Below, in pieces: positions 3,423-60,699 of a stretch of 64,000 nt of DNA. Location: NCBI GenBank assembly GCA_035221665.1, contig CM069168.1:9114001-9178000 (forward strand). The letters run 5' to 3'. The stretch is from Okamejei kenojei (taxonomy: Eukaryota). Both the position numbers and the translations under genes were made by a program. The notes beneath the pieces were generated by a model that had not been told where the DNA came from, searched no databases, and saw nothing but the letters and a program-made list of their open reading frames with translations. Within the stretch, counting starts at the first letter, position 1. Each line of letters opens with the position of its first letter.

Positions 3423-4861
3423 TCTTTCTGAAAACAAGCAGACCACAGAGAAAAAGACACACCGCCACGGTAAAACTTACCTGTCGGCCCGACTTTTCAA
3501 TTTGTAGCGGGAGCGCCTTGAACTCCCGTTCGTCGCGGGTGCACTGCATGAACGCTAATGTCGCGCATGCGTGCTGGACGGGGTCTCACGTAGCCACTCA
3601 CGTGACTCCGAAGTAAAATGCACTTTAATAGGGAGAGTTTGAGCTTGCTGATAATCTATTCACTGGAGCAGATGATGAGGGGGTGATCTTATACAGGTGT
3701 ATACAATCATAAGAAGAATGATCGCATAGACGCGTGGATTATCTTGCCCAGAGTGGGGGAATGGAGAAGCACCTAGGTAGAAGGTGAAGGGAGAAAGATT
3801 TGCTAGGAATCTGATGGCTAACCCTTTCACACGAAGGGCGGTGCGTTTATGGAACAAGCTGCCAGAGGTAGTAGTTGAGGCAGGGACTATTGTAACGTTT
3901 CATAAAAATAATAGACACATACAATGATAGGACAGGTTTAGAGGTATATGGGTCAAACGCAGGCAGGTTAGACTGACATGGCTAAACACTTGCAGGTGGG
4001 ACTAGCGTCGATTGGGCATTTTGAGAGGCATGGTCAATTTCTGTGCTCTTTGGCTTTAAAGGTGATATGTTGGTGGCGGAGACCAGTGAAGGAAAGGTAG
4101 GACCAACGAAACACCGCCTCTATTCTGAATAGGTGGCGTAAAGGCAGTACGAGCGAAGGTAGAAAGGAAAATGTGCGGGAGTGGCAAATAAAGTCTGCAG
4201 GCGGTGCCAGCGGGACAGAGGTTGGGCACTGGGTCACTGGGGAGATGCGGTCTGGTTCGAACCAGCCTACTCAACCTCTCCCTATAGCTCATACCCGCTA
4301 GCCATCGCAACATCCTTGTAAATCTTCTCTGTGCCCTCTCCAGCTTGACACCACCTCAGTCCCACCATCATAATCTGTGTGCACCTAGTGCGGAGTGGGG
4401 TGGGTAGATCAGAGGAGGATATGGTCGTTTTGCGCCAAGCTAACCATTAACGGGTCACGGCGCATGGCAGTCGAAGTCTCCATCAGAGCCGACTGCCTGT
4501 CGCGTTTCCAAGCTTACTTCCGCGCCCGGCTGTTCCCTTGAAAAAGAACACACAGTGCCCACTGGCACCAGGGAGGCGTTCCAGGTCCGCTGGGCGCCGA
4601 GAGGGACTGACTGTCTCCTGGATCAAGGTTGTAACATCGTAATCACTTGTTTATTTATGATCGTTGACAGTCAAACGGTACCGTGCAACCAACGTCCGGG
4701 TCAGTACACACGCGGACGGACCCAGGCTCTTCCCAGAGTGGTCTGAATGGCTCATTTCCAGGGTACGTTTGTATTGAGCCAACACCACGATCCTGCCACC
4801 CCTTCGGGTCACTCCAATCCCCGAAGGGACATTGACCACCCGCTGTCTTTGTCACCAACAG

Positions 4862-6005
4862 CTAAGGGCATGTGCGTTGACACAAACGACGGAACGGAGA
4901 ATAATCAATTCGGAGAAAATTGGATGAACACTAACTGCTGGGGGTGCGTGTGTGCACGCACGGGTTATAAAGGGTGCGAACGGTAAATAATCCGCCTTTT
5001 AGCTCACAGGATCTGACCGCGACGGTTGAACCTGCACGCATGGGTTCTGTTGGCGTCGCAGACAACAGGGTGTGAGCCGTGTCGATTGGCGATGGGTTGA
5101 GAATTGACGTGTATAGTAGACAGAATGGTCCTGACCACGGGCTCTCTACATCTCTGCATCAAATCCCGATACACGGGGAAGCTTCGGCCGGGATCTGATT
5201 CTGGGTGGTGATCATTGGGGAAGGCTTGGCGGAGGGAGGGAGGGAGGGAGGGAGGGAGGGAGAGAGAGAGAGAGAGGGGCGGGGGAGGAGGGAAGAGATT
5301 GTATGAAGGATTGTAAAGGCAGTCAAAGCAAAGCCTAGAATCACACGGCACGGGCCCTTCAGTGCGCTGGGTCAGGCCGCAACTCTGGAGATCATAAGAG
5401 GACATTTCTGGTTGTGACCCACCGTCCGTGTGTCCGCATCTCCGGCCGCTCTCAGGGCTGACCCGCAGAGTCACCCCAGCACTTTTTGCCTTTAAAAATA
5501 AATCTCCCCCCCCCCCCCCCCCCACCCCACCACCACCACCTGAATTTTCGAGACTAACTGAAAAGGCAAATTCATCACCAATGTGCTGGTCCTTGTAACC
5601 AGAGCGTGTGGAGGAAACGTAAACATACACAGACAGTAACCGAGGTTAGGTTTATTCGACAAAGAGAGAGGATGAGGGGGAGAACACACCGCGTTAACAC
5701 CGACCATTGTTGGGAGGGAATTTGAGCATCCATAAAAATACTCACGCAGTCACACGGAGAACATGCAGACTCCACACAGACATGACCCGAGGTCAGGATC
5801 GAATCCGCGTCCCTGGCGCTGTGAAGCAGATCTTCCGAATTGTTTATAATTGGTTCACCTGATCTATTTCCCTAGGTATTTCATGCCAACTAATTACCCA
5901 GAGGGTTGTGCCACATCGTTCGATATGCAGTCTTGTTCGTTTCGAGTCCATTCGAAGGAGGACTCGTCAGTCAAATGTACATTGGAAGGACTTGTTGGGA
6001 AATGA
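4862..6005 (+). pseudogene. MSMB/PSP94-like copy 1: exon 3 (4862-4982) and exon 4 (5876-6005); no signal-peptide exon recognised
   Basis: ACAG|..KGMCVDTNDGTENNQFGENWMNTNCWGCVCARTGYKGCER|GTAAAT; CTAG|YFMPTNYPEGCATSFDMQSCSFRVHSKEDSSVKCTLEGLVGK*; phase-2 junction; AATAAA at 6099. Confidence 0.82.
5710..5830 (-). mobile_element. Degenerate V-SINE (HE1-like) in MSMB-like last intron
   Basis: CACGGAGAACATGCAGACTCCACACAGAC core; same position in paralog at 63660-63780. Confidence 0.6.
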
Positions 6006-6848
6006 GCTGGAATAAGCAGGCAGCTCCCAATGTGGAGACATTCATCAATGTGATACAGGAGCCTTGACTCTTGCATGTCATGTAACGACTTGCATCACAA
6101 TAAAAATATAACAAACCTATTCTGCCATCATTTGCTGACCCATTATTTCAACAAGAAAGGGGCATGAGATACAGGAGGCGATGGGAAACGATGTGGCGCG
6201 TCTGAGAACTTGAGTGTTTATTGAGAAAATGTAAATTGAACGAAATATCATTGGTAAGAAGATGGAACTATGAAATATGTCAATGAAAAAGAAAAGTGGT
6301 TAATTCTAAGGATTTGATGCGTGCCTGAAAATGGGGAACAAGGCATCATAGACCCTCACAAACCAGTGAATAAATGGACTGGAGGAAGAGAAGGCACTAG
6401 GAAATGGCGTGGCGCGTTTGGGATCATGAGTGTCAGAGAAAATTGAAGATGCAGTGCGTGCACGTAAAAACAATCTAAGAATACTAAGAACGTGTATTAA
6501 TTCATGAGAGGAATAGACCGGAAGGCGCTCAGAGTCTCTTGCCCAGAGTAGGGGAATCAAGAACCAGGGAATATGTTGAAGGTGAATGAAAAATATTTCA
6601 TAGGAATCGGAGGGGTAACATTTGCATGCAAATAGTGGTGGGTGTATGGAACGAGCTGCCGGAGAAGGTAGTTAAGGCAGGGACTACCGCAGCCTTTAAG
6701 AAGCAATTAGACAGCAAAGGGCCTGTCCCACTTGGCTGTCATTTGCGCGCCATTTACGCGACCTGGTAGCCTGTGGGTAGCGCGGGACGGGCGCATGGAC
6801 TGGCCTGGAGGAGTGTGGAGTTGCGCACGGTATCGCGTAGCGCGCCAG

Positions 6849-8720
6849 CATGGTGGCCAAGTAGCCGAGGTGGAATGCAGAGGCCCCTAACCAAGTCTGG
6901 TGTGCGACAGCCCCCAATTAAAGCTTTTATGGACGACCTTACCATCACCACAACACCAGTCCCAGGAAGTAGGTGGATCCTACAAGGTCTTGAGAAACCT
7001 ATCACCTGCGCAAGGATGAGTTTCAAGCCAACGAAGTCAAGGTCCATGGTGCTGAAGAAGGGGAAGGTGACTGACAGATTCCACTTCTTACTATCCGGAA
7101 CTGCCATTGCCTCCATCACTGAGCAACCTGTCAAGAGCTTGGGGAAGGTTTTTGACGCAACCCTGAAAGGCTCTGCCGCCATTCAAAAGTCCATCAAAGA
7201 CCTTGAAGCCTGGCTTACTAAAGTCGACAAGTCAGGTCTGCCAGGCAGATTCAAGGCCTGGACCTATCAGCATTCCATCCTGCCCCGAGTCCTGTGGCCT
7301 CTGCTGGTTTACGCTGTTGCATTGACCACAGTTGAGTCCCTCGAAAGGAAGATCAGCGGCTTTCTCCGCAGGTGGCTTGGCCTTCCCCGCAGCCTCAACA
7401 GTGCTGCACTGTATGGGACCAGTAACATCTTGCAGCTCCCATTCAGTGGCCTCACCGAAGAGTTTATGGTGGCGCGAACAAGAAAGGGACTGCAGTACAG
7501 GGACTCCAGGGACAAGAAGGTGTCATCGGCTGGCATTGAGGTGAGAACAGGGTGGAAATGGAGGGCGGCGAAAGCAGTGGAGATGGCAGAGTCACGCCTA
7601 AGGCAAAAGGCATTGGTGGGAGTCATGGCAACTGACAGAGCGGGTTTGGGATACTTCCCTAAGACACCGGTTGGCAAGGCCCAGGGCAAGGAGTGACACC
7701 ATCTAATCCAGGAAGAAGTCTGAGCAGGTGTGGAGGAAGAGCGTGTGAGCAGGACAGTGGGGCTCAGGCAGCAGGGAGTGTGGGCAAGGTGGGAGAACGT
7801 ACCACAGCGCAGGATTACCTGGTCAAACATCATGCAGGCAGACTTCCAGCGCGTCTGTGTCTACAATGCCCAACCAAGTCCAGCAAACCTCCACGTCTGG
7901 GGCAAGAGCGAGACACCTTCCTGCCCACATTGCTCTGGAAGAGGATCATTAGAACATCTCCTCAGCAGCTGCCCAAAGATTCTTGGGGAAGGTCGCTATC
8001 GGTGGCGGCATGACCAGGTGCTCAAGGTGGTTGCTGAGCGCATAGCCACTGCCATCGGTAGCAGCAAACACCACCACGCCCCAAAGAAATCAATCACTTT
8101 TGTCAAAGCTGGAGAGAAGCCCCGACCACAACCAAAACAAGGACGGGCCTCCTCGGCACAGCCACTGACTGGCAGCTGCACGTCGATCTGGGCAAACAGC
8201 TGAAATTTCCACAGCACATCACAGCAACATCACTCCGGCCAGACATGATCATCACCTCCGAAGTGACCAAACAGCTGATCATTCTGGAACTGACAGTGCC
8301 CTGGGAAGAGTGTATTGAAGAGGCTAATGAGAGGAAGCGCGCAAAGTACCAGGAACTGTGGAGATGTGCCAGCACAGAGGCTGGAAGACATACTATGAGC
8401 CTATAGAGGTGGGCTGTAGAGGCTTTGCTTTGCAGGACGCTCACTCTGCAAAGTCCTCAACCAGTTGGGCATGACGGGGCTGGCAAAGAAGAGGGCCATT
8501 CAATCCGCAAGTGAAGCCGCAGAGAAAGCCACTAGTGGCTTTGGATTAAGAGGGCTGATCCGTGGGCGGTTGCTGCTGGGACGCAAGTCGGGGCTTGATC
8601 AACCCCGGCTGGGTCGCCTGGGCGAGGGTGTCTGATGCTGTGAGATCCGAAACACCCGATGACCCCAGGTCACATCACTGAGGATGTGTCACAGCGCATC
8701 TAGAAGATGTATCTTTCACA
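6849..8720 (+). mobile_element. 5'-truncated non-LTR retrotransposon with restriction-like endonuclease (HERO-like)
   Basis: RT AFMDD, CCHC knuckle CPHC..H....C, RHDQVL, RPDMII..ELTVPWEE; stops and frameshifts present. Confidence 0.85.
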
Positions 8721-8830
8721 CGGAGGGGTAACATTTGCACGCAAATGGTGGTGGGTGTATGGAATGAGCTGCCGGAGAAGGTAGTTAAGGCAGGGACTAC
8801 CGCAGCCTTTAAGAAGCAATTAGACAGCAA

Positions 8831-9044
8831 AGGGCCTGTCCCACTTGGCTGTCATTTGCGCGCCATTTACGCGACCTGGTAGCGTGTGGGCAGCGTGTGT
8901 GTAGGACGGGACGGGCGCATGGAGTGGCCTGGAGGAGTGTGGAGTTGCGCACGGTATCGCCTAGCGCGCCAGGATTTTGTGCTGCACGAAATCTTCGCGC
9001 GCCATCGGCCTGTCGCATATATGACGGCCAAGTGGGACAGGCGT
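8831..9044. mobile_element. MITE with terminal inverted repeats (Harbinger- or Kolobok-like)
   Basis: AGGGCCTGTCCCACTTGGC...GCCAAGTGGGACAGGC; partial copy 6717-6848, inverted copy 58641-58844. Confidence 0.75.
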
Positions 9045-9046
9045 TT

Positions 9047-12000
9047 AATCCTCGACCTGAGATCATCCATGCTGTTTTCCAGGGACTGGACATTAGCAAG
9101 AAGAATGCTGGGCAGAGGTGGACGGTAGGCTTGAGCTCTGTACATTGGTTACTTTACTTATCAACCAAGGTAGTGCTTTATTATTATAAGCTCCGCCTAT
9201 ACCACACCATTCATATTATCGCAACACAACATGTGCTGACAGTCAGTACTGGTGCATGGTAGAAGTAACATGCTTAAGTGTGTTGTATACGTTCCTTAAT
9301 AAATATTGTTATACCAGATCTGGGAGTATATGTGATTTACTCAACATGGTGTCAGACGTGGTCAACCCACTCCGCGTTTAAGTCTATCGGTTTGATTTTA
9401 TTTCCAGTGGGGTTTTTTTTGTCCCTTTTTCGTGTTGCTATGGCCAACTCATTCCGTAAACCTGATCCTCTGATTTTTGACTCAGACCACGCTGAACTTT
9501 GGCGGATTTTCGAGCGAGATTTCTACGATTACATCCGTGCTGCTCATCGCAACGTTCCACCAGATCAACGTAACTCTATCCTTCTCAACATCGCTGGCCA
9601 AGAACCTATCAAACAAGCAGGGCGCTTCGTCTTTGCTCCTGCAGTTCTGGATCACAACTATCAGATTGTAGTACCTGCTGAAACTATTGATGATCCCAAT
9701 GTTCTGATCACCAAATTCAGACAGTTATGTGATCTTCGCACTAACTCTGTTCTGTAACATACTTTTTTTTTTGCACGAAATCTGCTGCAAGGTGAGCCTG
9801 TGGATACTTATATCAGCACTCTAAAACAAATTGCTGCATTCTACCGGTTTGCGAATCTGTGCGATTGATTGTTGGGTGAAATCCTCAGTAATAAAGTACG
9901 TGAGACTGAAACGAACTCTGGCCAGAGTTGACTGTGCTTGTCGTATTGCTCACAGACTCTCACACTAAATCAGTGGGGCCCAGACCGCATTCCTCATACG
10001 TGTTGATGCTACCGACACCTCCCACCGCAACCAAAGCTCCCAACCCACACATCATCTCGACAATCTACTGAATTATCGAAAAGTCTTCTAACTGTGGCGG
10101 ATTGCACCCCGCAGGTTGCGAACTGTGCCTTAACTTCGGAAAACGATGCCATTTTTGCGAAAAAAGAAGCCATTTCATTAAATGCTGTCAAAGATTTAAC
10201 TTCCTGTTAATACTCGAAGATCCTGATATCGAGTACCAAGCGCTACCAGCACCTCCTCTGGCTACTGTCCCTGAGCATGAAGATAACAGTCATAACATAC
10301 ACTTCCTGGTTGATTCCACTCACAAGCACCTCGACCCTGAAGTCTCACTTCGTTTCAACAATACCATTACTGTTGGAAAGATCGACACCAGGGCCAAATG
10401 TAACGTAATTGTCCGAATTTACTCAAATCAAAAATGCCGAACGTATTGTAAACACATCGGCCACTTTGTTAGCCTATGGGGGTGGGGGGTGCACCCAATT
10501 GGAAGAGCTGAGCTGAAATGCCACCTAGCTCACTTTTTTATTGTTCGTGGGAAAGTTGCAACTCTGCATGGCATTAACGCATGCCAGGACCTAGGATTGG
10601 TAATTGTTTGGGCTGCAGTCCATCAAATCTCTCCTGCTGATACTTCCCAGTACAATGAACTTTTTGACAATGATAAGTTTGGGACGCTACCCATCAAACG
10701 CAACATCGTCAACGATGCAAATGTCTTACCTGTGGTACGAGCACCACACCGAATGCCACATGCTATGCGTGGCAGAGTACACAATGAGCACCAGCGGGTG
10801 GTGTCCCTGGGTGCCATCGCCACAGGAACTGATCCATCCGACTGGATTTCCACCATGGTGGTCGCAACAGAGAAAATTATAGAAGAAATCCAAATTTGTA
10901 TCAACCCCAGAGACCTGAACTCAGCGATCAAATGCCGCACTACCCTGATGTGCACGATGGAGGAAGTTGCTGCTCAGCTAGGCAGTGCGTCTGTCTGTTC
11001 CTTTCTGGATGCCAACAGCTTATTTGGGCAGATCCCGATGGAACCCGACTCGTCTAAACCCACCACGTTCCGCACCCCGTTTGGCCATTACATATTTTTG
11101 AGTATGCCCTTTGGCATCAACTCTGCTAGCAAAGTATTCCAGCGTACAATGGAACAATTATTTACTGGGTATCCTCGAGCCATAATTGTTGATGACATTC
11201 TCGTTGCTGGACACGACATGGCTGAACATGATGCCAATTAAAAAAAGTATTGGACTGTGCAAAAGAAATCCACTGCAACCACAACATTCTGAGTGCAGGT
11301 CAAGGAGGTCCTGTTTGTTGGTCACGTATTCACCAGTGACGGCCACCGGCCTGACCTCTCCAAGACCATTGGCGAGATACCATTTGCCACTGACGTGACA
11401 AGTTTGCAGAGATTCCTGGGAACCGTTAACTATTTGGGTAAATTCATTCCCAAACTCAACAAAATATCTGCCCCTCTGCGACAACTAACTCACAAGGGTG
11501 TTACATGGTCTTGGTACCCACAACACCAGAGGGCATTCGAAATGCTTAAATGACTATTGTCCAGTGCCCCGCCCCTCGCTTATTTCAATTTAAACCTACC
11601 GGTGACACTCACGTGTGCTGTTTCCCAATATGGACTTGGAGCTGCTTGCCTACAGAATTCCTTCGAAGAAGACTGCAGACCTTTTGCTTACGCCTCCTGT
11701 ACCTTGTTTGAGACTGAAGATCAAAAAAGAATTACTAGCCGTGGTTTTTACCTGCACAAAATTCAAGGACTTAATTTTTTGGAAGTCCGTGGTTGTCGAA
11801 ACAGACCACCAACCGTTTCTCACTATTCTGAACTAACCCATTCTTGCAGCTCCTGCTCGCCTGCAACGGATGATGATGCCCCAGCAACTACTGCAGCCAC
11901 ACGTTCGTTCAACACTTGTCGTCCAGAACAACTCCAACTGAAACGCGATATCCAATCACGATTTATTGACTATTTAAACCTCTCTCCAGTGGCCAAGTCG

Positions 12001-13045
12001 CTCGCCTTCAAACCACAACAAGGGCTGCGGCCGTTTGGGCTTCATCCACAATTCCGAAAAAGAGCCGCTGGTGAGTGCAGACAGAGGGATCTACAGGCGC
12101 AGCCGTCAACATCACCTTCTTGTGAAGGAACCACGTCCTGCTGTCTCGTATCCTGATGCGACGCTTCCGATCTACACATCTACTCACGGACTTTCTCCTC
12201 TCTCATGACGTGCAGCTGCAGACCAACCATTGATTGTGACTCCAGCTCCCTCACCACCACATAGTGCTGCGCTCGCCTGCCTCGCGGTGTTTGTCCCCGG
12301 GTCCCCAGTGCTCCCGCCGCACGGTGAAGCGAGGAGATGCGGATCAGTTCCGATGCGCGCGGGATGGGTTTGCAGGACGCCCCTTAGATACGGGGACTTT
12401 GTTTGAATCATGTGTACTTCCCCATATGCGCTATTAGCGTTTCGGTTACATTACTAATCAGTCAGCACCTAGTAACGTACATCTACATACATATCACTTT
12501 ATTCTAGATGTGTTTCACTTTATATTCTCACAAGAAAGATGTAGTTTTGTTACTTTATCTACTAACTAATGTGGTGCTTTATTACTTAAAGCCACACCTA
12601 CTACCACGCCATTCATATTATCGCAACCCGACATGCGCTGTCAGTCAGTACTGCATTATAGGAGTAACATGCTGAAGTGTTTTGTATACGTTTGTTAATA
12701 AATATTGTTATATCAGATCTGTGAGTATGCGTGATTTACTCAACGAGCTCTTAGCCTGTTCCGAATCTCCTCCCGCTTACCTCAATGTTATTTTCGACTT
12801 GTTCCCGGAGCCGCGCTCCCATCGTTGTTGCCACGGATCGCTCTTATGATCTCTGCCGGCCATGCTGGATCAGTGAATAGAGTGTCCACAAACAAAATTG
12901 GCTTACGCTAAAATATGCTGTTTACGATCGGAGAGTGTTAGTGCTGATGTGTTAGTCTGAAAGATATGAAAAATAAACGTACTAGTTTAAAAACGCACGA
13001 TCTCCGCTGAGCTGCCACGACGGCAACTGGACCAGGCCGCGCCAT
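9047..13045 (-). mobile_element. Rex1/Babar-like LINE 5' fragment split by the Gypsy insertion
   Basis: 12746-13045 joins 9047-9138 to read ..RNRLRAQAYRPPLPSILLANVQSLEN (start of APE domain). Confidence 0.7.
9139..12745 (+). mobile_element. Ty3/Gypsy LTR retrotransposon, degenerate
   Basis: LTRs 9139-9346 and 12540-12745; TSD AGCTC; PBS TGGTGTCAGACGTGG (tRNA-Leu-like) at 9347; gag, protease (IDTxA), RT (MPFGI, IVDD) and RNase H remnants. Confidence 0.93.
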
Positions 13046-13049
13046 CAGT

Positions 13050-14170
13050 TAAGGCGCAAGAAGTACCTTTTGTACAACTCACCCTTACCTCAAAACATTT
13101 TCCAGTGGTCTAAGAATCTACATCCCTGCCTCCTGCACCAGCTCCTCAGCCACACATTCTGATCCCCTGTTCCCGCCCTCACCAGCACGGAGAACTGGAA
13201 GCAAACCAGACATAACCACCCTGGAGGTCCTGATTTTCAGCCATCTTCTGCGCTTTCTGAAGTCTAGTTCGCTGCAGAATATCTTTCCTCATTTCCCGCC
13301 GTCATTTGTGCCGACATACACTACCATTTCCGGCTGCTCACTTTCCCCCTTGATGATGCTTTGTAATCGGTCCATGACGACCTGGATCTTGGCACCAAGG
13401 AGGCACACACCACAATTAAATCCCGCCTGTTTTCGCAGAAACGCCTGCCTGCACCTCTCACGATGGCCCCCGACTACCACGGCTCTGCCTGACGTCTGGC
13501 ACTTCGGCTTTGCTTCAGCGCTACGTTTTGACTCGCAGACCTGTCCCCCCCGCTCAGAATGGCAGTGTCTTCTGGTCCGACAGCTTCCAAAAGGGTGAAT
13601 CTGTGTTCAAGAGGTACATCCCCCGGGGTCTCATATACTCCCCTGCTTCCTTCCCTTCCTCATCGACACCCACCTTCTCTCTTCCGGTACCTTCGGTGTA
13701 ACGGTCTCGCTGTATGTCCTGTCCAGCAAAATCCCTCTTTTTGCCGGATGTCCCTGAGGTCATCCAGTTGCCTCTCCAGTGCGGTCCTTCAGGAGCTGAA
13801 CCAGGACACTTCCACCATTGTAGCAGCCAGAAGTACCAGCAGTGTCCAGATCCTCCTACATCGTGCAAGCATCGCACTGAATCAGTGTACCTGTCATTTC
13901 TTCACTGCGTCTCAGCCTCCTCGATGAAGACTCTCGAACCAAAGACTCGTACTTTTCTCACTAGACTCACGATCCAGAGACTCGCACTTTTCTCACAAGG
14001 TACTTCCCTCGACAAGGTTGCTCCCCGACAGGCCGCTCCCCTAGAGCAAGCCTTGCTTATATTAGCTGATAAATAGACCAATTCGCGAACTTACTGTGTT
14101 TTGGTAATTATATTCCTCAGCCAATACCCTCACTCACTCTTTCACCTGCCGCTCCTCTACCGACTTTAAC
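13050..14170 (-). mobile_element. CR1 5' region / ORF1 (SGNH esterase-like) remnant
   Basis: LxGAKIQ..DRL..GE.EQPE.VV.VGTND; copies at 29520-30630 and 53695-54200. Confidence 0.75.
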
Positions 14171-14344
14171 TAACCTGCGCGTGGTCCCTAACCCCCAAAC
14201 CTGTACTATCCTTGTACCTATCTAACTGTTTCTTAAAATGTGGGATTGTCCCAGCCTCAACTACCTCTTCTGGCAGCTTGTTCCACACTCCCGCCACCTT
14301 TTGTGTGAAGAAGTTACCCCTCGCTGAAGGCTCTGGCACCCATG

Positions 14345-15595
14345 GTGCTGAGTCTAAATGTGGGGACAGTTAAAATTGCATGGATAACAATGCACAATGC
14401 TCTTGAACATAATGTGATAAGTGATAAAAGTACCAAGGTGCATCATATTGGACCGATGTCATCAAACAAGAAATAATGAGTGTGATGGTTTGGTTGTGGA
14501 TTTACTCATTATAATAACTGCAAGCTTTCGATTGATGTAAAACCTAATGCTTCTTTTGCTAGTGTTGAATATAAATGGGAACATATTAGGTTGCTGCCTC
14601 TGCTAAGTGGCATTGAACGTGTGGTCTGAAATGTACTCTACGTTGGCATAATATTGTAAAACGGAGTTTTACGAGATAGATCACTATCCGGCTCAAGAAA
14701 TTAATGGTACCGTCGGTGGGAAAATCGTTAACAGTAAGCTACATTGTCGTACGGAATGAGTCGGACGAGATATTAAGATTTGTCGCAAACAAACAAACCA
14801 ATACCACACCTCCATGCTGATTGGAAGACACTGACTAAGGAGGGTGAAATGGTTATACATGACTGGCCTGACAGCACTAAGCCTATTCGGATGCATGGCA
14901 GAGAAGCAGAGGACATATTGAGAAAATGGACTTGGTGGGAAAGAGCCTGGAACTGGGGACTGGATACTAACGTGCACCCTTTCAGTAGTTTTTGTACAGA
15001 TATTGATAGTGATTAATTTGTTCTTATTTTGATTTCACAGGAGGATATACGATAAGTTGAAAACCCTGATCTTAATGAGGCAGGTGGGACGAGGGGATAA
15101 CAGACAACAATTAGTTTCAGTAGGTGTATTAGTGGGTGCTGTTTAATATGGATTAATTGGATGTGGCCAATTGCCAAGAGGGGGAAATGTAGAGAAGTTT
15201 GAGCATTATAAGGAAGATGAGTAGGTTATAGTTAGGGTAACCCTGGAGCTCACTTACTGGAGCATGATGGGAAAATAGCCAAGATAGAACGAAGTTAAAA
15301 TAGCTAAAAATGAATAATTCTGCTGAGGAGCGGGCATTCTTATCAGTCGGGGTTGATAGCCCTATGTAGTACTGTCTACATTCTTATCCGTTGCAATTTT
15401 GCATTAGAGCTGCTCTTGGTCACTGTGTTTAGCAGGCAAGTATCCCAAAGTTTAACACACTACTTATTTGACGAGCGGACTCAATCAGGACATTTATGGT
15501 AAATACATGTTAGATATATGGGTGGGAGATTTCTAAACAACAAGAAACGTAAGCTTAAAATTAGCTTTGGGGAAAGACAAAGATGAAAGGTTACA
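14345..15595 (+). mobile_element. ERV 3' remnant: env C-terminus, PPT and probable 3' LTR (copy 1)
   Basis: WWERAWNWG before a hydrophobic segment; AAGAGGGGGAAA PPT then TGTAGA (15188) ... GGTTACA (15595). Confidence 0.65.
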
Positions 15596-15609
15596 GAGAC
15601 ATTAACAAA

Positions 15610-15698
15610 TATTGGAATTGGTGGAGAGGTTGCATATTGCGTTGGGGGACCAACCCTCCCGTGTGAACATGGGACCGAACGGGTCCCACTTAGTCTAG
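15610..15698 (+). mobile_element. Helitron-like 3' terminus
   Basis: Hairpin TGGGACC-GAACG-GGTCCCA followed by CTTAGTCTAG|T; inverted copy 27512-27600. Confidence 0.6.
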
Positions 15699-16385: not shown

Positions 16386-16447
16386 TTTCTGAATTATTAT
16401 TCAAACATTATTTGAAATTTCATCCAAGTTGCTATCAGAGTTACACG

Positions 16448-47305: not shown

Positions 47306-47394
47306 CGTGTAACTCTGATAGCAACATGGATGAAATGCCAAATAAATGTCTTTAACAATTCGTACGTTCGGTAAAACGCAGAATGACAGAATCT

Positions 47395-49200: not shown

Positions 49201-49204
49201 AGTT

Positions 49205-50440
49205 AGATAATAGATAGACAATAGATAATAGGTGCAGGAGTAGGCCATTCGGCCCTTCGAGCCAGCACCGCCATTCAATGTGATCATGGCTGATCATCCC
49301 CAATTAGTACCCCGTTCCTGCCTTCTCCCCATATCCCCTGACTCCGCTATCTTTAAGAGCCCTATCTAGCTCTCTCTTGAAAGTACCCAGGGGACCGGCC
49401 TCCGCCCTCGGAGGCAGAGAATTCCACAGACTGACAACTCTCTGTGAGAAAAGGTGTTTCCTCGTCTCTGTTCTGAACGGCTTATCCCTTATTCTTAAAC
49501 TGTGGCCCCTGGACTCCCCCAACATCAGGAACATAAGATCCCCTCTCATCCTTCTAAACCCCAGAGTGTACAAGCCCAGCTGCTCCATTCTCTCAGCATA
49601 TGACAGTCCCACCATTCCGGGAATTAACCTTGTAAACTTACGCTGCACTCCCTCATTAACAAGAATGTCCTTCCTCAAATTAGGGGACCAAAACTGCACA
49701 CAATACTCCAGGTGTGGTCTCACTAGGGCTCTGTACAACTGCAGAACATTTATCCACATTAAACTTCATCTGCCATGCACCTGCCCCTCCCCCAACCTGT
49801 CCATGTCTCCCTGCATTTTCATAGCATCCTCCTCACAGTTCACACTGCCACCCAGCTTTGTGTCATCTGCAAATTTGTTAATGTTACTTTGAATCTCTTC
49901 ATCCAAATCATTGATGTATATTGTAAATAGGTGCGGTAAACATTTATGTAAACATTTATCCACAAGTCATTCTGCCTGTCATTCTGAAAGGGACCTGTTA
50001 ATCCCTACTCTTTGTTTCCTGTCCGCCAAACAATTTTCTATCCATGTCAGCACTCTACCCCCAATACCATGTGCCCTAATTTTGCCCACTAATCTCCTAT
50101 GTGGGACCTTATCAAATGCTTTCTGAAAGTCCAGGTACACGACATTTCACTGACTCTTCCTTGTCAATTTTCCTTGTTACATCCTCAAAAAATTCCAGAT
50201 TAGTCAAGCATGATTTCCCCTTCGTAAATCCATGCAGATTCGGACCGATCCTGTTACTGCTATCCAATTGTGCAGCTATTTCATCTTTTAAAATTGACTC
50301 CTGCATCTTCCCCACCACCGATGTCAGGCTAACTGGTCTATAATTCCCTGTTTTCTCTCTCCCGCCTTTCTTAAAAAGTGGGATAAAAAGCTACCCTCCA
50401 ATCCACAGGAACTAATCCTAAGTCTATAGAACATTGGAAA
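49205..50440 (-). mobile_element. CR1 LINE 3' portion
   Basis: RT remnants (KFADD, LVRPHLEYC); ATAGACA-type tail. Confidence 0.88.
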
Positions 50441-52660
50441 TTTTACTTCGGAATCACATGAGTGACTACGTGAAGAGCCCGCCAGCCCGCATGCACGTCA
50501 TTATCGTCTAACGCATGGCGCATGACTGGCTAGGTGGCGCACTGCTCCTCCAGCGGTATGTTTAAAAAGGCCCTACAGGTAAGTTTGCACTTATTCTGAA
50601 GTCGTTTTTTGTTCTGCAATCTTGATTGCAGAATGGCAAATTTCCGATTACTATGGAAACGTCCAGGGTGAAGTAAAAACGGGCTGCAGGGAAACTGGCT
50701 ACAGAGCACCGCGGGATTGTGGGTACCCGGCGGCCATTGATTTCGCCACCTGAGTCGCTGATGGTACGGTCAGCGGCTTCCAAGTCAGTGCCTGTGGAGA
50801 ACACTATGGTTCCCCAGAAAGGGGGAAAAACCAAAAAAAAGTACTGGACTACCTCCGAATACAATGCACCTGGGAACTGTGCTTCGCTAAGTGTACCGGC
50901 TGTGAACAACTCGATTTGGGGATATATTGGAGGGGCATCAAGGCCCAGGAAGTAACACTCCAGAGAATCCTCAAATTGCTGGCCTCAGGCATAACAGCGT
51001 TTGCCAGGTCCGTGGATGGGGGTTCATTGTCGGATGTACAACAGGATGCCCTGGCATTAATGTGCAACGCACATGTTGAGATCAATTGCTTCTGCAAAAG
51101 TGCCATCCGGCTTGCCCTGAACCCCAAATTTGCGGAGTTGTGCAAATCTAGCAACATTCAGCCGCCGAATCTCCTCTTCGGAGAAAACCTGCCAAAAACA
51201 GGTCAAGGACCTCGATGAAGAAGCAAAAGCTGTCAGGCTGATGAAGGCGCCATCGACCGGCAAAGCTTATCAATTCCGGCGGCAGCACCCCTACGCATCC
51301 ACCAGCAGAAAGTGGTTTGCTGAAGCTGGTGAAAGCTCGAGGGCCATATATTCTGGCCAGAAGTATTTTTTAGGCCGAGGCCCAGCACCCGGCCAGCCCT
51401 CTTGGAAGATGCGCCATTTGCGCCATCCAGCACCCCTACCCCCAAAACCTCAGAAACGAGGGTTTCGGGGGCAGAAATAAAAACCACAAAGCTACCGGTA
51501 ACTATGGAGGTAGGTGGGTCTGGTTCCTTCTGGAACATGGGGTGTGTGGACTGTTTACAAGTTGGTGGGAGATTACACTTGTTTTTGAATGAATGGAGTT
51601 GGATAACGTCAGATCCGTTATGCACAGTATACAGGGGTTCTAAATCGAGTTCCTTCCCAAATCATTGCCACCCACATAGCATGCACCAAACCGGACGGTT
51701 TGTTCATTCACAACAGGAAGATTTGGATGTACTAGCAGAAATTCAAAAGTTACATTCACAAGGGGTAATTGAGAGGTCGAGTCATGAGCCTCACGAATTT
51801 GTTTCTAATATATTTACAAGACAAAAGAAAGATGGAGGATGCCGTATCATCCTTGATTTGACTCAGTTTAACGCTTTTGTGCAGTATAGACATTTAAAAA
51901 TGGAAACCTTCGATACTGCCAAACAACTGATTTCCAAAGGATGCTTTATGGCATGCATCGATCTCAAAGATGCATACTATTCGGTACCCATTCATAGGGA
52001 TCACCAGACATATTTGAAGTTTAACTGGATGGGGCAACTATGGAAGCTTAGAGCGTTGCCTAATGGGTTTACATCAGCCCCAAGATCATTTACCAAATTG
52101 TTAAAACCGGCACTTGCACTTCTCAGAGCTCAAAAACATATTGTTATGGCATACTTCGATGATATCATAATTATAGGAACAACTCTGAAATTAGCTAAAT
52201 TAGCGGTTTCAGCCACTAAACTCTTGTTTGAGGGATTGGGGTTTCTCATCGATCCAGATAAATCGAAGTTGATACCATCCACAGTTATTGATTATTTGGG
52301 GTTTACTATTAACTCTGTTCACATGTCTGTGACTCTGCGCTGGGGCAAGATATTAGAATTAATAGAAGCCTGTAACAACCTTGTTGTTGTTGAGCAACTG
52401 TCTATTCGACAGGTGGCCAGGGTAATTGGCAAATTAGTGGCTTCCTTTCCAGCTGCACAGTTTGGGCCTTTGCATTCTCAGAATTTGCATCATGCAAAGG
52501 AGCAAGCACACAAAGGTCATGCAGGTCATTTTAACAGACCTATGCAGCTACCAGCCGATGCTATTTCTGAATTACAATGATGGACGACCAATATTTGGCA
52601 TTGCTCCAATACTATTTTCGTCCGCACGCCTTCAGTTATATTACAAACTGATGCTAGTGT
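50441..52660 (+). mobile_element. Second DIRS1-like element (different subfamily), internally deleted and 3'-truncated
   Basis: TTTTACTTCGGA terminus; ORF1 remnants; RT ORF 51402-52580 (IDLKDAY, YFDD); ends at RNase H TDAS. Confidence 0.9.
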
Positions 52661-53049
52661 GTTGTGTTAGTTCAATTTTTCCTTTATAGTTTATACTGTT
52701 TCTACTGAGTTCAATGTTTCCGTTTAGCAGTCTTATTCATGTCCACGAGAAAACATATGTCTCCTTCCAATTTAACACAATGTAGCCCACCCAACAGGGC
52801 TGGAGACCAGTCCATTCAGGGAGAATTCTAACCCTTACCTGATTTCCGCTCTGCGACATTTTAGCTTGAATTCTTACTTTTCCTTTTCCTAATATTTGAT
52901 CCTCGACTGAACAAATAACTCATACTTAAGTAGAGGATATTTATTTACTAACTCTTGGATGTACCCAATATTTTTCAATTTCCATTACAGGCATCTGCTC
53001 ATATCGGTTTTACATCTTCAGTAGGTGGATAACTCACTGTTATACAGAG

Positions 53050-54395
53050 AATTGTGAGGTGTTGCATTTTGGGACGTGGAACAAGGGTCGGACATATACA
53101 GTAAATGTTAGGACTCCGGACAGTGTTGGCGAGCAGGGGGATCTAGGAGTACGTGGATGGTTCCTTGAACGTTGAGTCGCAGGTAGATAACGTGGTCAAA
53201 CAGGCTTTACGCACTTTGGCCTTCATTAGTCAGAGTATTAAGTATAGAAGTTGGGAGTTCATGTTGCAGTTGTATAAGACGTTGGTTCTGGGCACTATGT
53301 TATAGGATAGATATTGTCAAACTTGAAAGCGTTCAGAAAGGATTTACGAGGATGTTGCTTGGACTGGAGGGTGTGAGCTATAGGGAGAGGTTGAGTAGTC
53401 TATTCCATGCAGAGCAGGAGGAGGAGGGGTGGTCTTATAGAGGTGTACAAAATCATGAGAGAAATAGATCGGGTAGATGCACAGAGTCTCTGGCCCAGAC
53501 TAGAGTTATCGATAGCCAGAAGACAGGTTCAAGGAAATTATTTAATAGGAATCCGATGGGTAACCTTTTCACACAAAATGTGGCGGGTTTGTGGAACAAG
53601 CTGCTAGAAGTGGTAGTTGAGGCTGGGACTATCCCATATTTAGACAGGTACAAGGATAGTACAGGTTTGGAGGGATATGGACCACGCGCAGGTTAGTCAA
53701 GGTCGGCAGAGGAGCGGCGGGTGAAGGAGTGAGTGAGGGTATTGGCTGGGGAATGTAATTGACAAAAAAAGGTAAGTTAGCGAATTGGTCAATTTATCAG
53801 CTGATATAAGCAAGGCTAGCTCTAGAGGAGCGGCCTGTCGGGGTGCGGCCTTGTCGAGAAAAGCACAAGCCTTTGGCTCGAGCATCTTCATAGAGGAGGC
53901 TGTGGGAGGAGACTGCGCCAAAAGTTGGAGAGTGTGAGACGCAGGTAGGCTGATTGAGTGCGATGCTTGCACGATGTAGGAGGATAGGGACACTGCTGGT
54001 ACTTCTGCAAGTGTCCTGGTTCTGCTCCTGAAGGACCGTGTTGGGGCACTGGAGAGGCAACTGGATGACCTCAGGATCATCCGGTAAAACGAGATTTTGT
54101 TGGACAGGACATACAGCGAGCTCGTTACACCGAAGGTACCGGAATAGAGGTGGGTGACGATGAGGAAGGGAAGGAAGCTGTGGATTATAGGAGACCCCGG
54201 GAGACAAATTGGAAATATAAGGATGGAGTTAAAGGGAAAGAGAGTATAGGAAAAGTTAAGAAAGACACCAGAATTAACAGGGCAGGAAGCTTAAAAAAGG
54301 GACAGGGGAGCGTGACCAAGTGAAATAGGAATCGATGTGAAAGGTGAGGTGAGTAATGGATTAAAAGTATTATATATGAATGCGCGAAGTAAAAG
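53050..54395 (+). mobile_element. CR1 fragments (3' end, ORF1 remnant, ORF2 start)
   Basis: Homologous to 29090-30060; GLKVLYMNARS at 54358. Confidence 0.7.
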
Positions 54396-54760
54396 AAGTA
54401 TAATGAATGGCGCAGCCGGGTCCAGTCACCGTCAGCTCCTGGAGAACCGCCCTCTCAAGGTGGCGCGGCCGCGTCCAGTTGCCGTCGTGGCAGCTCCGCG
54501 GAGATTGTGCGTTTTTTAAACTATCACGTTTATTTTAATATATTTCAGACTAACACATCAGCACTAACACTCTACGATCGTAAAACACTTTTACACTTAT
54601 ATTTCTTTTTTTTTTTTGTAGACACTTTGTTCACCGATCCAGCTTGGCCGCAGAAAACCTAAGAGAAATCCGCGGCAACAACGATGGGAGCGCGGCTCCG
54701 GGAACAAGTCGGAAATAACATTGAGGTAAGCGGGAGGAAATTTGGAACAGGCTAAGACCT

Positions 54761-57700
54761 TGTTGAGTAAATCACACATACTCACAGATCTGATATAACA
54801 ATATTTATTAAGAAACGTATGTTACTCCTATCATGCAGAAGTACTGACTGACAGCGCATGTTGGGTTGCGATAATATTAATGGCGTGGTCGTAGGTGTGA
54901 CTATAAATAATAAAGCACCACATTAGTTAGTAGGTAAAGTAACAAAACTACATATTTCATGTAACAATATAAAAGGAAACACAATGAAGTGATATATATG
55001 TAGAAGTACGTTATTCGGTGCTGACTGATTAGTAATGTAACCGAAACGCTAATAGCGCATATGGGGAAGTACGCATGATTTAAACAAAGTCCCAGTATCT
55101 AAGGGGCGGGCAACAAACCCATCCCGTGCGCATCGGTACAGATCCGCATCTCCTCCCTTCACCGTGCGGCGGGAGCACTGGGTACCCGGGGCACAAACAC
55201 GGCGAGGCAGGCGAGCGGAGCACTGTGTGGTGGTGAGCGAGATGGAGTAACAATCATAGAAACATAGAAACATAGAAAATAGGTGCAGGAGTAGGCCATT
55301 CGGCCCTTCGAGCCTGCACCGCCATTCAATATGATTATGGCTGATCATCCGACTCAGTATCCTGTACCTGCTTTCTCTCCATACCCCTTGATCCATTTAG
55401 CCACAAGGGCCACATCTAACTACTTCATAAATATAGCCAAAGAACTGGCATCAACTACCTTCTGTGGCAGAGAGTTCCACAGATTCACCACTTTCTGTGT
55501 GAAAAATGTTTTTCTCATCTCGGCCCTAAAAGACTTCCCCTTTATCCTTAAACTGTGACCCCTTGTTCTGGACTTCCCGAACATCAGGAACAATCTTCCT
55601 GCATGTAGCCTGTCCAACCCCTTAAGAATTTTGTAAGTTTCTATGAAATCCCCCCTCAATCTTCTAAATCCTAGCGAGTGCAAGCCGAGTCTACCGTCTT
55701 TCTTCACATGAAAGTCCTGCCATCCCATGAATCAGTCTGTACTGCCTCTGTACTCCCTCTATGGCAAGAATGTCCTTCCTCGGATTAGGAGACCAAAACT
55801 ATACACACTACTCCAGGTGTGATCTCACCTTCGATCTGCAGTTTCAGACAAGGTACGGGAGGCATAAGCAATAGGTCTGCTTCGACAGAATTCTGCGGCA
55901 AGCAGCTCCAAGTCCATACTGGGAAGCAGCACACGTGAGTGTCACTGGTAGGTTTAAATTGAAATAAGCAGGGGGAGGGGCACTGGACGATAGTCATTTA
56001 AGCATTTGGAATGCCCTCTGGTGTTGTGGGTACCAAGACCATGTAGCATCCTTGTGAGTTAGTTGTCGCAGAGTGGCAGATATTTCGCTGAGGTTGGGAA
56101 TGAATTTCTCCAAGTAGTTAACCGTTCCCAGGAATCTCTGCAAACTTGTCATGTCAGTGGGAACTGGTATCTCGTTGAAGCCAATGGTCGTGGAGAGGTC
56201 AGGTCTGTGGCCGTCACTGGTGAATACGTGATCAACAAACAGGACCTCCTTGACCTGGAATCTGCAGTTCACAGTGTTGAGCTTGCGGTGGATGTCTTTT
56301 GCATTGTCCAGTACCTTTTTAAATTGGCATCATGTTCAGCCATGTCGCGTCCAGCAATGAGAATATCATCAACAATGATGGCACGAGGATACCGAGCAAA
56401 TGATGTTTCCATTGTATGCTGGAATACTTCACTAGCAGAGTTGATGCCAAAGGGCATCTGCAAGAATTTGTAACGGCCAAATGGGATGGTGAGTTTGGAC
56501 GAGTCGGGGTTCAGCGGGATCTGCCCGAACGAGCTGTTGGCATCCAGAAAAGATAACACAGAGGCACTGCCTAGCTGAGCAGGAACTTCCTCCATCGTGC
56601 ACTTTGGGTAGTGCGGGCATTTGATCGCTGAGTTCAGGTCACTGGGGTTGATACAAATTTGGATTTCTTCTTTAATTTTCTCTGTTGTGACCACCATGGT
56701 GGAATCCAGTCGGATGGGTCAGTAGCCGTGGCAATGACACCCAGGGAGACCACCCGCTGGTGCTCATTGTGTACTCTGCCACGTATAGCATGTGGCATGC
56801 GGTGTGGTGCTCGTACCACTGGTAAGACATTTGCATTGTTGACAATGTTGCATTTGATGGGTAACTTCCCGAACTTATCGTCAAAAAGTTCCGTGTACTG
56901 GGAAGTATCTGCTGGGTGGAGCCCTCGGCAGGGGAGATTTGATGGACAGGAGGTCGAAAAGTTACAGTCCTAGGTCCTGGCATGCGTTAATGCCATACAG
57001 AGTTGCAACATTCCCACGGACAATGCCACCTAGCTTGTGATGCTAGGTAGCATTTCAGCTCAGCTTTTCCAATTGGATGCACGCCCCCCCCCCCCCACCC
57101 CCTCATAGGCTAACAAAGTATCCAATGTGTTTACAATATGTTCGGCATTTTTGAATGTGTACATTCGGATAATGACATGACGTTACATTTGGCCCCGGTG
57201 TCGATATTTGCAACAGTAATGGCATTGTTGACACAAAAGTGAGACTTCAGGGTCGAGGTGCTTGTTAGTGGAATCAACCAGGAAGTGTATGTTGTGGCTG
57301 CTATCTTCATGCTCAGGGACAGTAACCGGAGTAACAAGCTAACCAGGTGCTGGTTAGCTTGTTACTCGATATCAGATTCTTCGTGAATCTGATATCGAGT
57401 TAACCAGATATTTTTACTCGATATCAGATTCTTCGTGTTTTAACATGTGCCTTGGGAATGCGCGATTCCCATGGGCTAGACAGCATTTAATGAAATTGTT
57501 TCTTTTTTTGCAAAAATGGCATCGTTTTCCTAAGGCAAGTCACAGTTCACAATCTGGGGGGTACAATCCGCCACAGTTAGAAGACTTTTCGATAATTCTT
57601 TGAGATTGTCGAGATGATGTGTGGGACTGGGAGTGTTGTTTCCGGTAGGAGGCGTCGGTAGCATCAATACGGTATGAGGAATGAGGTCCGGGCCCCACTG

Positions 57701-58547
57701 ATTTAGTGTGAGAGTCTGTGAGCAATACGCCAAGCATGTTCAGCTCTGGCCAGGGTTAGTTTCAGTATCACGTACTTTATTACTGAGGATTCCACCCAAC
57801 AATCTATCTCAGACGAGTTCATCACACAGATTCGCAAAACGGCAGCGTGCAGCAATTTGTTTTGGAGTGCTGATATAAGTCTCCACAGGCTCACCTTGCA
57901 GCAGATTTCGAGCAAAAAAAAAAGTATGTTACAGAACGGAGTTAGTGCAAAGATCACATAACTGTCTGAATTTGGTGATCAGAACATTGGGATCATCAAT
58001 AGTTTCAGCAGGTACCACAATCTGGTTGTTGTGATCCAGAACTGCAGGAGCAAAGTCGAAGCGCTCTGCTCATTTGATAGTTTCTTGGCCAGCGATGTTG
58101 AGAAGGATAGAGTTACGTTGGTCTGGTGGAACGTTGCGATGAGCAGCACGGATGTAATCGTAGAAATCACGCTCGAAAATCCGCCAGCGTTCAGCGAGGT
58201 CTGAGTCAAAAATCAGAGGATCAGGTTAACGGAATGAGTTGGCCATAGCAACACCAGAAAATGAACATAAATAAAACACTGGAAATAAAATAAAGCCGAT
58301 ATACTTAAACGCGGCATGGATTGACCACGTCTGACACCATGTTGAGTAAATCTTATATACTCACAGATCTGGTATAACAATATTTATTATGAAACGTATA
58401 CAACACACTTAAGCATGTTACTTCTAACATGCACCAGTACTGACTGTCAGCCCATGCTGTGTTGCGATAATATGAATGGTGTGGTATAGGCGGAGCTTAT
58501 AATAATAAAGCACTACATTGGTAGGTAAGTAAAGTAACCAATGTACA
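54761..58547 (-). mobile_element. Gypsy element, duplicated copy of 9139-12745
   Basis: LTRs 58340-58547 and 54761-54952, same PBS and same Rex/Babar flanks. Confidence 0.93.
55256..55828 (-). mobile_element. CR1 3' fragment replacing part of Gypsy pol
   Basis: (ATAGAAAC)n tail; ORF 55420-55728; absent from the left Gypsy copy. Confidence 0.85.
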
Positions 58548-58640
58548 GTGCACACGCCTACCGTCCACCTCTGCCCAGCATTCTTCTTACTAATGACCAA
58601 TCCCTGTAAAACAACATGGATGATCTCAGGTCGAGGATTA

Positions 58641-58844
58641 AGGGCCTGTCCCACTTGGCCGTCATTTACGCGACAGGCCGATGACGCGCGAAGATTTCGT
58701 GCAGCACGAAATCCTGGCGCGCTAGGCGATACCGCGCGCAACTCCACACTCCTCCACGACACACCATGCGCCCGTCCCGCGCTACACACACGCTACCAGG
58801 TCGCGTAAATGGCGCGCAATTGACGGTCACGCGGGACAGGCCCT
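58641..58844. mobile_element. MITE, duplicated copy of 8831-9044
   Basis: TTA-AGGGCCTGTCCC...GGGACAGGCCCT-TTA. Confidence 0.75.
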
Positions 58845-59975
58845 TTAATGTCTAATTACTTCTTAAAGGCTACGGTAGTCCCTGCCTTAACTACCTTCTC
58901 CGGCAGCTCGTTCCATACACCCACCACCATTTGCGTGGAAATGTTACCCCTCCGATTCCTATGAAATATCTGTCATTCACCTTCACCATATTCCCTGGTT
59001 CTCGATTCCCCTACTCTGGACAAGAGACTCTGAGCGCCTCCCGGTCTATTCCTCTCATGATTTAATACATGTTCTTAGAATTATTAAATTGTTTTTACGT
59101 GCACGCACTGCAACTTCCATTTTCTCTGACACTCCTGATCCCAAACGCGCCACACCATTTCCGAGAGTCTTCTCTTCCTCCAGCCCATTTATTCACTGGT
59201 TTGTGAGGGACGATGAGGCCTTAGTCCCCATTTTCAGGCACAACGCATCAAATCCTTAGAATTTATCACTTTTCTTGTTCATTGACAGATTTCGTAGTTT
59301 CATCTTCTTACCAATGATATTTTCTTCAATTTACATTTTCTCAAAAAACACTGAAGTTCTCAAACATCGTTTCCCATCGCCTCCTGTATCTCACGCCCCT
59401 TTCTTATTGAAATAATGGGTCAGTAAATGATGGCAGAATAGAATAGGCAGTGGGAGTGGATGGGGGGGAGGGGGGGTTTAATTTTAAAGACAGAAAGTGC
59501 TGGGGTGACTCTGCGGGTCAGCCCTGAGAGCAGCCGGGGATGCGGCCACACGGACGAAGGGTCACAACCAGAAATGTGCACTTATGTTCTCCAAAGTTGC
59601 GGCCTGACCCAGCGCACTGAAGAGCCCGTGCCGAGTCATTCTAAGGTTTGCTTCGACGCCCTTTACAATCCTTCATACAATCTCTTCCATCCTCCCCCGC
59701 CCCCTCTCTCCCTCCCTCCCTCCCTCCGCCAAGCCTTCCCCAATGATCACCTCCCAGGATCAGCTCCCGGCCGAAGCTTCCCCGTGTATCGGGGTTTGAT
59801 ACAGAGAAGTAGAGAGCCCGTGGTCAGGACCACTCTGTCTACTATACACGTCAATTCTCAACACATCGCCAATCGACACGGCTCACACCCTGGCATCTGC
59901 GACGCCAACAGAACCCATGCGTGCAGGTTCAACCGTCGCGGTCAGATCCTGTGAGCTAAAAGGCGGATTATTTAC

Positions 59976-60093
59976 CGCTCGCAGCATTTATAACCCGTGC
60001 GCGCACACACGCACCCCCAGCAGTTAGTGTTCATCCAATTTTCTCCGAATTGAGGAGCCGTTCCGTCGTTTGTGTCAACGCACGTGCCCTTAG
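59976..60093 (-). pseudogene. MSMB/PSP94-like copy 2: orphan exon 3
   Basis: KGTCVDTNDGTAPQFGENWMNTNCWGCVCARTGYKCCER with intact splice sites; exon 4 segment deleted at ~59445. Confidence 0.8.
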
Positions 60094-60699
60094 CTGTTGG
60101 TGACAAAGACAGCGGGTGGTCAGTGTGTCTTCGGGGATTGGAGTGACCGAGGGGGTGGCAGGATCGTGGTGTTGGCTCAATACGAACGCACCCTGGAAAT
60201 GAGCCATTCAGACCACTGGGAAGAGCCAGGGTCCATCCACGTGTGTACTGACCCGGACCTGGCACTTGGTTGCACGGTACCAATTCTCTTCCTAACTTAC
60301 GAGTCTGCTCATCTCGTCCCACTCTCCCCATCTGAACCCTGGCAACCTTCGCTACAAGCTTAGAGAGCGCATCACATGAAACTGTACCTCCTTCCTCATC
60401 AACGTTCAGAGTCCTAAACAGCTTTTCTCAGGCGCGGCGGCGATTCACGTGCATCTCCCCCAAGGTGGCGTGTTCGTTCATCTAACACCGACCAGTTACT
60501 CCAGCATTTTGTATCGAATAATACAACACTGAAACAGGCTTTCGGCCCACAATGTATGTGCTAAATATTATGCCTACCATGCTCTCCCAACCCGGCCGCT
60601 TCTCCCCATTGTTTGAGCGGCCAACCTCCTCCCCAATGGTACCGCCTGCAGCCAGTTAATCTCCGGTCTCGAGAACCGGACTTTCATTTTTAGTTTAAG

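Follow-up and report, generated by a model that had tools for sequence, protein, structure and literature searches.

A probable old, decayed inverted segmental duplication within a PSP94-like gene cluster of the skate Okamejei kenojei

Introduction

We describe here a stretch of 64,000 nucleotides of Okamejei kenojei (assembly GCA_035221665.1, contig CM069168.1, hereafter C38, positions 9,114,001-9,178,000), which we call the window, and in which copies of a G protein-coupled receptor (GPCR) gene and of an env-like block lie in alternating orientations within a cluster of PSP94/MSMB-like genes. The contig is ~20.0 Mb long in a genome of 2.76 Gb, and the locus stands mid-contig, at ~9.1 Mb. We consider it fairly probable that this structure is an old and decayed inverted segmental duplication in the PSP94-like cluster, which would have arisen through a single fold-back immediately upstream of a receptor gene of the GPR139-like type and, soon after, a tandem duplication of the centre.

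The locus and its four arms

Comparison of the window with itself delimits four arms. Arm A (4677-20899, plus strand) is the left outer arm and also the left arm of a first palindrome, whose other half is arm B (20900-31118, minus strand), an inverted copy of 12562-20899 of A. Arm C (40969-42847, plus strand), which is direct to A, holds an env-like block and the end of a CR1-like insertion of the type found in A; of the GPCR, it retains 60 bp of intron (42385-42444) and no exon. Arm D (42853-60281, minus strand) is direct to B and inverted to A. B and C are separated by a spacer (31119-40968, unstranded), a repeat pile that would hide the tandem-duplication joint and that is made of a high-copy long terminal repeat (LTR)-type element (31119-34200), a CR1 (35021-36306), L1-like sequence (~36.3-40.3 kb) and CR1 fragments. 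The original prediction, which described an inverted amplicon enclosing two GPCR palindromes, had placed one of its junctions at 37.0 kb, a position that falls within the L1-like element.

The same ordered blocks do occur in opposite orientation in the outer arms, as had been claimed. Indeed, 12 colinear inverted blocks connect 4677-19845 to 43851-60281, with 739 substitutions over 8585 aligned columns (8.6%), once the link between 17508-18418 and 42961-43838 is excluded from the chain because it pairs two separate CR1 insertions. These columns are spread over spans of 15,169 and 16,431 nucleotides, so that ~55% of each outer arm is alignable. Counting substitutions only, as in all these comparisons, A and B differ by 430/5389 (8.0%), B and D, which are direct to each other, by 457/5566 (8.2%), and C and D by 100/1265 (7.9%). 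The mirror is real, and is not explained by chance, by scattered repeats or by an assembly echo, since different types of elements share their junctions and each arm carries private insertions and deletions; on this point the earlier reading was right. Its claim of a unit of GPCR and env-like block repeated four times in alternating orientation holds for the env-like block, but the coding exon of the GPCR is present in A, B and D only. In the same way, the first of the two palindromes (A/B) stands, but C and D are barely palindromic, with 1.3 kb aligned and C devoid of the receptor.

The receptor copies and their family

The sole intact receptor is copy D (44286-47305, plus strand; exon 1 at 44286-44355, exon 2 at 46407-47305), which bears an L1-like insertion in its intron. 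Copy A (16408-17506, minus strand) is a pseudogene, with stop codons, a small deletion at the start of the exon and an exon 1 that is deleted at 19678. In copy B (25158-27055, plus strand), exon 1 is open and exon 2 is frameshifted by a 43-bp deletion near 26716. With one of the four GPCR units intact, the gene birth and death that had been proposed fits the locus. The ratio of non-synonymous to synonymous rates (dN/dS) is 0.27 between D and a copy found on contig C43, and 0.41-0.61 among A, B and D, all these values being drawn from few changes.

The receptor contains a 7tm_1 domain (Pfam profile, E 9.9e-23), and its closest named protein among the matches listed comes from the skate Rhinoraja (91%). 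Of the listed homologues, 115/120 are shark or ray proteins called "probable GPR139" and 5/120 are unnamed; "GPR139-like" is the automatic annotation name of these database homologues and not an assigned orthology. A search of the genome itself with 46385-47302 of the window as a query scored 129 matches among 2713 candidates, which sets a minimum rather than a copy number. This search, together with the shark and ray homologues, indicates that the family to which the receptor belongs is very large. Many of the candidates are clustered on small contigs (C35-C44 and C15). In a tree, A, B and D make a branch of their own and three Rhinoraja proteins join the C43 copy, so that we rejected the latter as orthologues of A, B and D. 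These three proteins (P0001, P0123 and P0124) are consecutive models on one contig and form a young trio near the C43 copy. Because they form their own young trio, this receptor lineage would have duplicated separately in the two skates.

The PSP94-like gene cluster

PSP94/MSMB genes are recognizable by their four exons, a start resembling a signal peptide and ten mature cysteines. Such genes lie in the arms, although the original prediction does not mention them. Exon searches found 23 copies of exon 3 at 9.05-9.37 Mb and 8 copies at 6.79-6.85 Mb, both on C38, after two weak hits were dropped as spurious. The main cluster contains ~12 genes in which exons 2-4 are open, in both orientations, and it extends on both sides of the inverted structure; the 6.79-6.85 Mb cluster is largely an inverted copy of a part of it, 5-12% diverged. 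With the PF05825 profile, 12 of 25 matches are above the cut-off, all of them on C38. A homologue search with the PSP94 exon returned no candidate. At 115-164 kb in window coordinates, units of 12-16 kb, which share up to 98.6% identity and each contain a PSP94-like gene, form a young tandem array.

The window itself carries one complete gene of four exons (62688-63958, plus strand), which has nine cysteines, one having been replaced by arginine, and whose partner in the left arm has ten. This partner scores 26.5 bits against PF05825, and the exon of the window 19.7 bits, which is below the cut-off. The two genes of this pair differ by 14 non-synonymous and 3 synonymous changes, corresponding to proportions of 0.056 (pN) and 0.043 (pS), for 0.038 in the introns; we did not accept positive selection, as the differences are too few. 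On the left, a remnant (4864-6005, plus strand) has kept exons 3 and 4 open but has lost one cysteine, and no exon 2 was found. The mirror of 4864-4984 is an orphan exon 3 (59975-60091, minus strand) with deletions on both sides.

The env-like block and the other repeats

The env-like block lies at 14383-15193 in A (plus strand), where it appears as an old dispersed retroelement-like fragment, at 27990-29074 in B (minus strand), within arm C (40969-42847) and at 47528-49200 in D (minus strand), which has the longest of the four copies. The label "env" of the original prediction is unconfirmed, no match having been found in Pfam, in Atlas or in a homologue search among longer proteins. The block belongs to an old dispersed family, of which five other examined copies are decayed. 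We rejected the possibility that GPCR and env-like block form a mobile unit, since members of the env-like family are scattered with no GPCR beside them and no env block accompanies the GPCR copy of C43. We also rejected that the env-like element has its 5' part in the LTR-type element at 31.1-34.2 kb, because the latter is from a different and far more numerous family, found in other genomic places; it includes a 53-bp tandem array of 8.8 copies (31424-31904). Nested losses are seen beside the env-like block in A, B and D (14323|14383, 29074|29095 and 48452-53285), where D retains the most and A the least.

The names CR1, L1, DIRS, Gypsy and HERO are taken from Pfam domains and typical element layouts rather than from a repeat library. 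Self-comparison and Pfam place a Gypsy-like LTR element in both outer arms (9139-12744, plus strand; partner at 54757-58547), and it predates the arms, as its two LTRs are 83% identical. Other elements are private. In arm A, a non-LTR element (6852-8720, plus strand) has no Pfam match and is the putative HERO element of the original prediction. It is flanked by a direct duplication of ~244 bp (6608-6851 = 8721-8975), which is single in the other arm and unusually long for a target-site duplication. The left arm also carries a retrotransposon (1-3617, minus strand, starting 1286 bases left of the window) with RVT_1 and weak RNase H matches, presumably of the DIRS type given its gene order. CR1-like and DIRS-like elements are found in D only (49214-53284, unstranded).

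The first centre

The centre at 20.9 kb can be read thanks to contig C43, whose receptor copy is 10-16% diverged and has an unrearranged upstream region. Arm A tracks this copy up to 20896, and the next ~140 bases of C43 correspond to 20929-21072, at the start of B and in the opposite orientation. Since adjacent parts of a continuous copy match A and B in opposite orientation, this centre is, as judged from the C43 comparison, a fold-back joint (20899|20900), with a non-duplicated spacer of ~170 bp that consists of an old CR1 fragment (20900-21072, unstranded). The present-day unpaired loop is 20662-21075, after a ~240-bp deletion in B. The losses of B beside the centre, of ~240 bp and ~590 bp, came later.

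The second centre and the probable duplication of the middle

Two CR1-like insertions connect the four arms. The first one lies in the GPCR intron of A (17507-19012, minus strand), and its 3' end follows the identical intron base in A and C, the site being empty in B and D. The second one lies upstream of the GPCR of B (21341-24710, plus strand), and its 3' end falls at a single upstream site in B and D, which is empty in A and in the C43 copy. These sites, common to A and C and to B and D, speak for a duplication of the centre in tandem. The order originally proposed, a fold-back inversion and then a tandem duplication, is thus supported both by the C43 outgroup, which defines the 20.9-kb joint, and by these insertion sites.

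At 42.85 kb (42847-42961, unstranded), a deletion joint connects the A-type CR1 with part of the B-type CR1 (42853-42958 = 23039-23143). On the basis of its sequence, this second centre is a duplicate of the first one minus ~5 kb, and not a second fold-back. The two CR1s differ by 10.4%, near the arm divergence, which makes it likely that the fold-back and tandem steps took place within one burst of the CR1 family; these two events were probably close in time. A CR1 5' fragment at the outer end of C (40339-40939) is 7-10% from the 5' end of the CR1 of B (21371-21686), and may either have moved there from the second centre, since deleted, or have been inserted independently.

The 1532 columns around the receptor contain 20 shared-derived sites (8 BD, 8 AB and 4 AD), which fall into 8 runs for 13.8 expected (p = 0.005). 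This clustering in runs suggests that the arms exchanged sequence while they were young. Among the B+D sites, 5 of 8 are within 800 bp of the CR1 site of B and D, which also speaks for the tandem step. The substitution patterns are star-like in the env block, in the receptor exon and with dispersed env outgroups, and the order of events is not recoverable from them; three "outer" outgroup rows, which are self-copies, and a misaligned "outer A,B,D" block were left out of these analyses.

The continuation beyond 60281 and the young patch

The mirror had been thought to end at 60281, but inverted homology goes on, as 60281-65835 pairs with the sequence that lies 2.0-7.7 kb left of the window. The apparent end is a ~1.8-kb deletion of the right arm facing the DIRS-like insertion of the left arm. 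The paralogue at 6.79 Mb is continuous across the left-hand break and has an empty site in place of the DIRS-like element, so that the left arm gained the element and the right arm lost ~1.8 kb. The joint at 60281 is bridged by a contig (run X3), with 40 and 237 letters on either side.

The continuation of the right arm (60281-64000, minus strand), which reaches ~64.6 kb, and its inverted partner to the left of the window differ by only 2.1-3.7%. In this patch, 39/1839 and 70/1870 columns differ, versus 539/5925 in the inner arm (Fisher p 9e-29 and 9e-16) and 167/1823 farther out. In 946 columns with the 6.79-Mb paralogue as an outgroup, right and left differ at 23 positions, right and paralogue at 67, and left and paralogue at 78, with similar GC and CpG. 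As the distances to the outgroup stay high with similar composition, the patch is not slow-evolving but younger than the arms. It covers ~4 kb and includes the whole PSP94-like gene. A late copying from arm to arm, either by conversion or by a later templated copy, is the likely explanation of these differences. On the other side, the patch ends in a young CR1 and its flanks differ between the arms, so that it may be a later duplication rather than a conversion. Just beyond the window, 64001-64440 is 3.3% from a third copy versus 6% from its mirror partner, which points to a general copying among the paralogues of the cluster. The left arm terminates in a CR1 (8651-6237 bases left of the window) whose 5' part is inverted, a configuration reminiscent of twin priming or of a subsequent inversion. 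Contigs that are 9% diverged (runs X1 and X3) were not accepted as an unconverted left arm, as the third paralogue at 6.79 Mb, 92% identical, explains them.

Proposed history and alternatives

The history that we favour starts with a C43-related GPCR of a large family, located in the cluster beside old retroelements. A fold-back at 20.9 kb, whose joint can be read and whose mechanism we infer, would then have produced head-to-head arms around the ~170-bp spacer, and one CR1 inserted into each of them. The centre would next have been tandemly duplicated to yield A, B and C, D; the second copy lost ~5 kb over its centre, and C its GPCR. The young arms may have swapped short tracts until insertions and deletions stopped most of the exchange, and three of the four GPCR units would have died. 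Much later, ~4 kb with the whole PSP94-like gene would have passed from one outer arm to the other. Most likely, the structure as a whole is a side effect of cluster turnover and has no function as a palindrome.

Several observations weigh against this history. At the fold-back, the C43 copy ends just short of the bases in which an inverted microhomology would be seen. Where B and C should meet, the tandem joint is not seen, being buried by high-copy LTR-type, CR1 and L1-like sequence. The informative sites do not follow the expected pairing either: in the 575 columns of the env block, 1 site groups AC|BD, 4 group AD|BC and 2 group AB|CD, and those of the GPCR exon are split 4/4/4 across the three groupings. 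A and C, at 8.5%, are no closer than A and D at 6.8%, and the CR1 ends of A and C are 13-14% apart, which is not below unrelated copies. Finally, A and B both lack sequence that is kept in D and partly in C, and this needs two deletions or a conversion. The nested losses beside the env-like block are also out of step with the pairing of A with C and of B with D.

One alternative, which we hold to be unlikely, is a single complex replication event, with serial template switches that produced the four arms at once, and early conversion that spread the CR1s and the deletions. The equal distances between arms, the star-like site patterns, the significant mosaic of shared-derived sites and the nested deletions in A, B and D would all be natural under such an event, but it has to copy two kilobase-size insertions, each between arms 20-25 kb apart, and the second centre amounts to the first one, copied and then shortened by a deletion. 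Two successive fold-backs, in the manner of breakage-fusion-bridge cycles, can be judged improbable as well: A,B would have been mirrored to B',A', and the centre of the second palindrome flipped later by recombination between its env blocks. This agrees with the mirror-image outer arms and with the AD|BC grouping of 4 of the 7 informative env sites, a tree that turns star-like once dispersed outgroups are included. However, an extra inversion is required for the CR1 pairs, C retains env sequence that is absent from B, and no mirror centre was found in 31.1-41.0 kb.

In contrast to the tandem duplication that we favour, an active ampliconic palindrome, maintained by ongoing conversion and gene selection as on mammalian sex chromosomes, is very unlikely. 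Ampliconic palindromes are defined by arms of at least 8 kb with at least 99% identity, kept by conversion (PMC8327919), and deletions at the centre are described for X palindromes (PMC8327919), as is the case here; the 2-4% patch across the PSP94-like gene also goes in this direction. As for arm length, A and D give 8585 aligned columns in 12 pieces, A and B 5389, and C and D 1265. The arms are 7.9-8.6% apart and no block attains 99%, the best one being at 2.1%. Besides, among the matches listed, the best contigs of another organism are only 2-3% from the window (9/320, 9/396 and 10/475), a level that only the 60.3-64 kb patch approaches, and three of the four GPCR units are dead. An assembly artefact (a haplotype echo or a mis-join), whether it concerns the entire structure or just the 97% patch, can be dismissed as hardly credible, for although the region is repeat-rich, the 2% patch is closer to the allelic level and contig depths cannot establish both patch copies in other samples, there is the 8-9% divergence with its private insertions, each joint is explained by outgroup copies, the X3 contig crosses 60281 and the flanks of the two patch copies differ.

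A bolder extension of the history, which we regard as doubtful, is that, even as its receptors decay, a dead palindrome would still transfer an entire PSP94-like gene from arm to arm over 60-70 kb, with conversion surviving only over the selected gene, and that this would be one of the largest vertebrate PSP94/MSMB families, built by inverted duplications.

Significance

As a structure, the locus is what gene-cluster turnover ordinarily produces. It is of value as a readable fossil in a cartilaginous fish, in which the fold-back joint, an order of events drawn from shared insertions and the fates of gene copies can be followed at the base level. The PSP94/MSMB-like expansion and the very large elasmobranch GPR139-like family may matter more than the palindrome. 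In the open literature on GPR139 in sharks, microseminoprotein in cartilaginous fish and segmental duplications in skates, subscription journals not being covered, we found no paper on this locus or on these expansions.

Comparison with known systems

The resemblance to ampliconic palindromes that had been proposed fails, with arms ~92% identical against a criterion of 99% (PMC8327919). Like the primate X palindromes (PMC8327919), the locus carries genes in its inverted arms, has deletions at the centre and shows traces of copying between arms; unlike them, it has arms broken by insertions and most of its genes are dead. Judged by its sequence, it is not an ampliconic palindrome, and only the 4-kb outer patch and the mosaic of early sites show traces of such copying.

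Human fold-back inverted duplications (PMC3907307) likewise link the inverted copy to the direct one by a short non-duplicated spacer. Theirs is of 766-70,466 bp, while it is ~170 bp here, and our structure is interstitial and old, with no adjacent terminal deletion, translocation or ring, since it is mid-contig with the PSP94-like cluster on both sides.

As regards the genes, the receptor is a 7tm_1 protein like the elasmobranch "probable GPR139" family, but A, B and D stand on their own branch, the three Rhinoraja proteins grouping instead with the C43 copy. MSMB/PSP94 paralogues number 14 in marsupials and 3 in chicken and zebrafish (PMC8167871), and these clusters share with ours tandem, small, cysteine-rich proteins of the secreted type matching PF05825. 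Unlike them, the skate carries 31 exon-3 copies on a single contig, where they form two clusters and lie in both orientations.

The closest case is SD12A1 of mouse chromosome 12, an autosomal palindromic segmental duplication with arms ~93% identical and no general homogenization, except for a few younger blocks that reach 97-99% identity, including one of 4.1 kb (PMC13688818). Both have diverged inverted arms with younger blocks, but SD12A1 spans megabases, whereas the skate structure covers ~70 kb, with a fold-back joint resolved to the base and a centre that is itself apparently duplicated.

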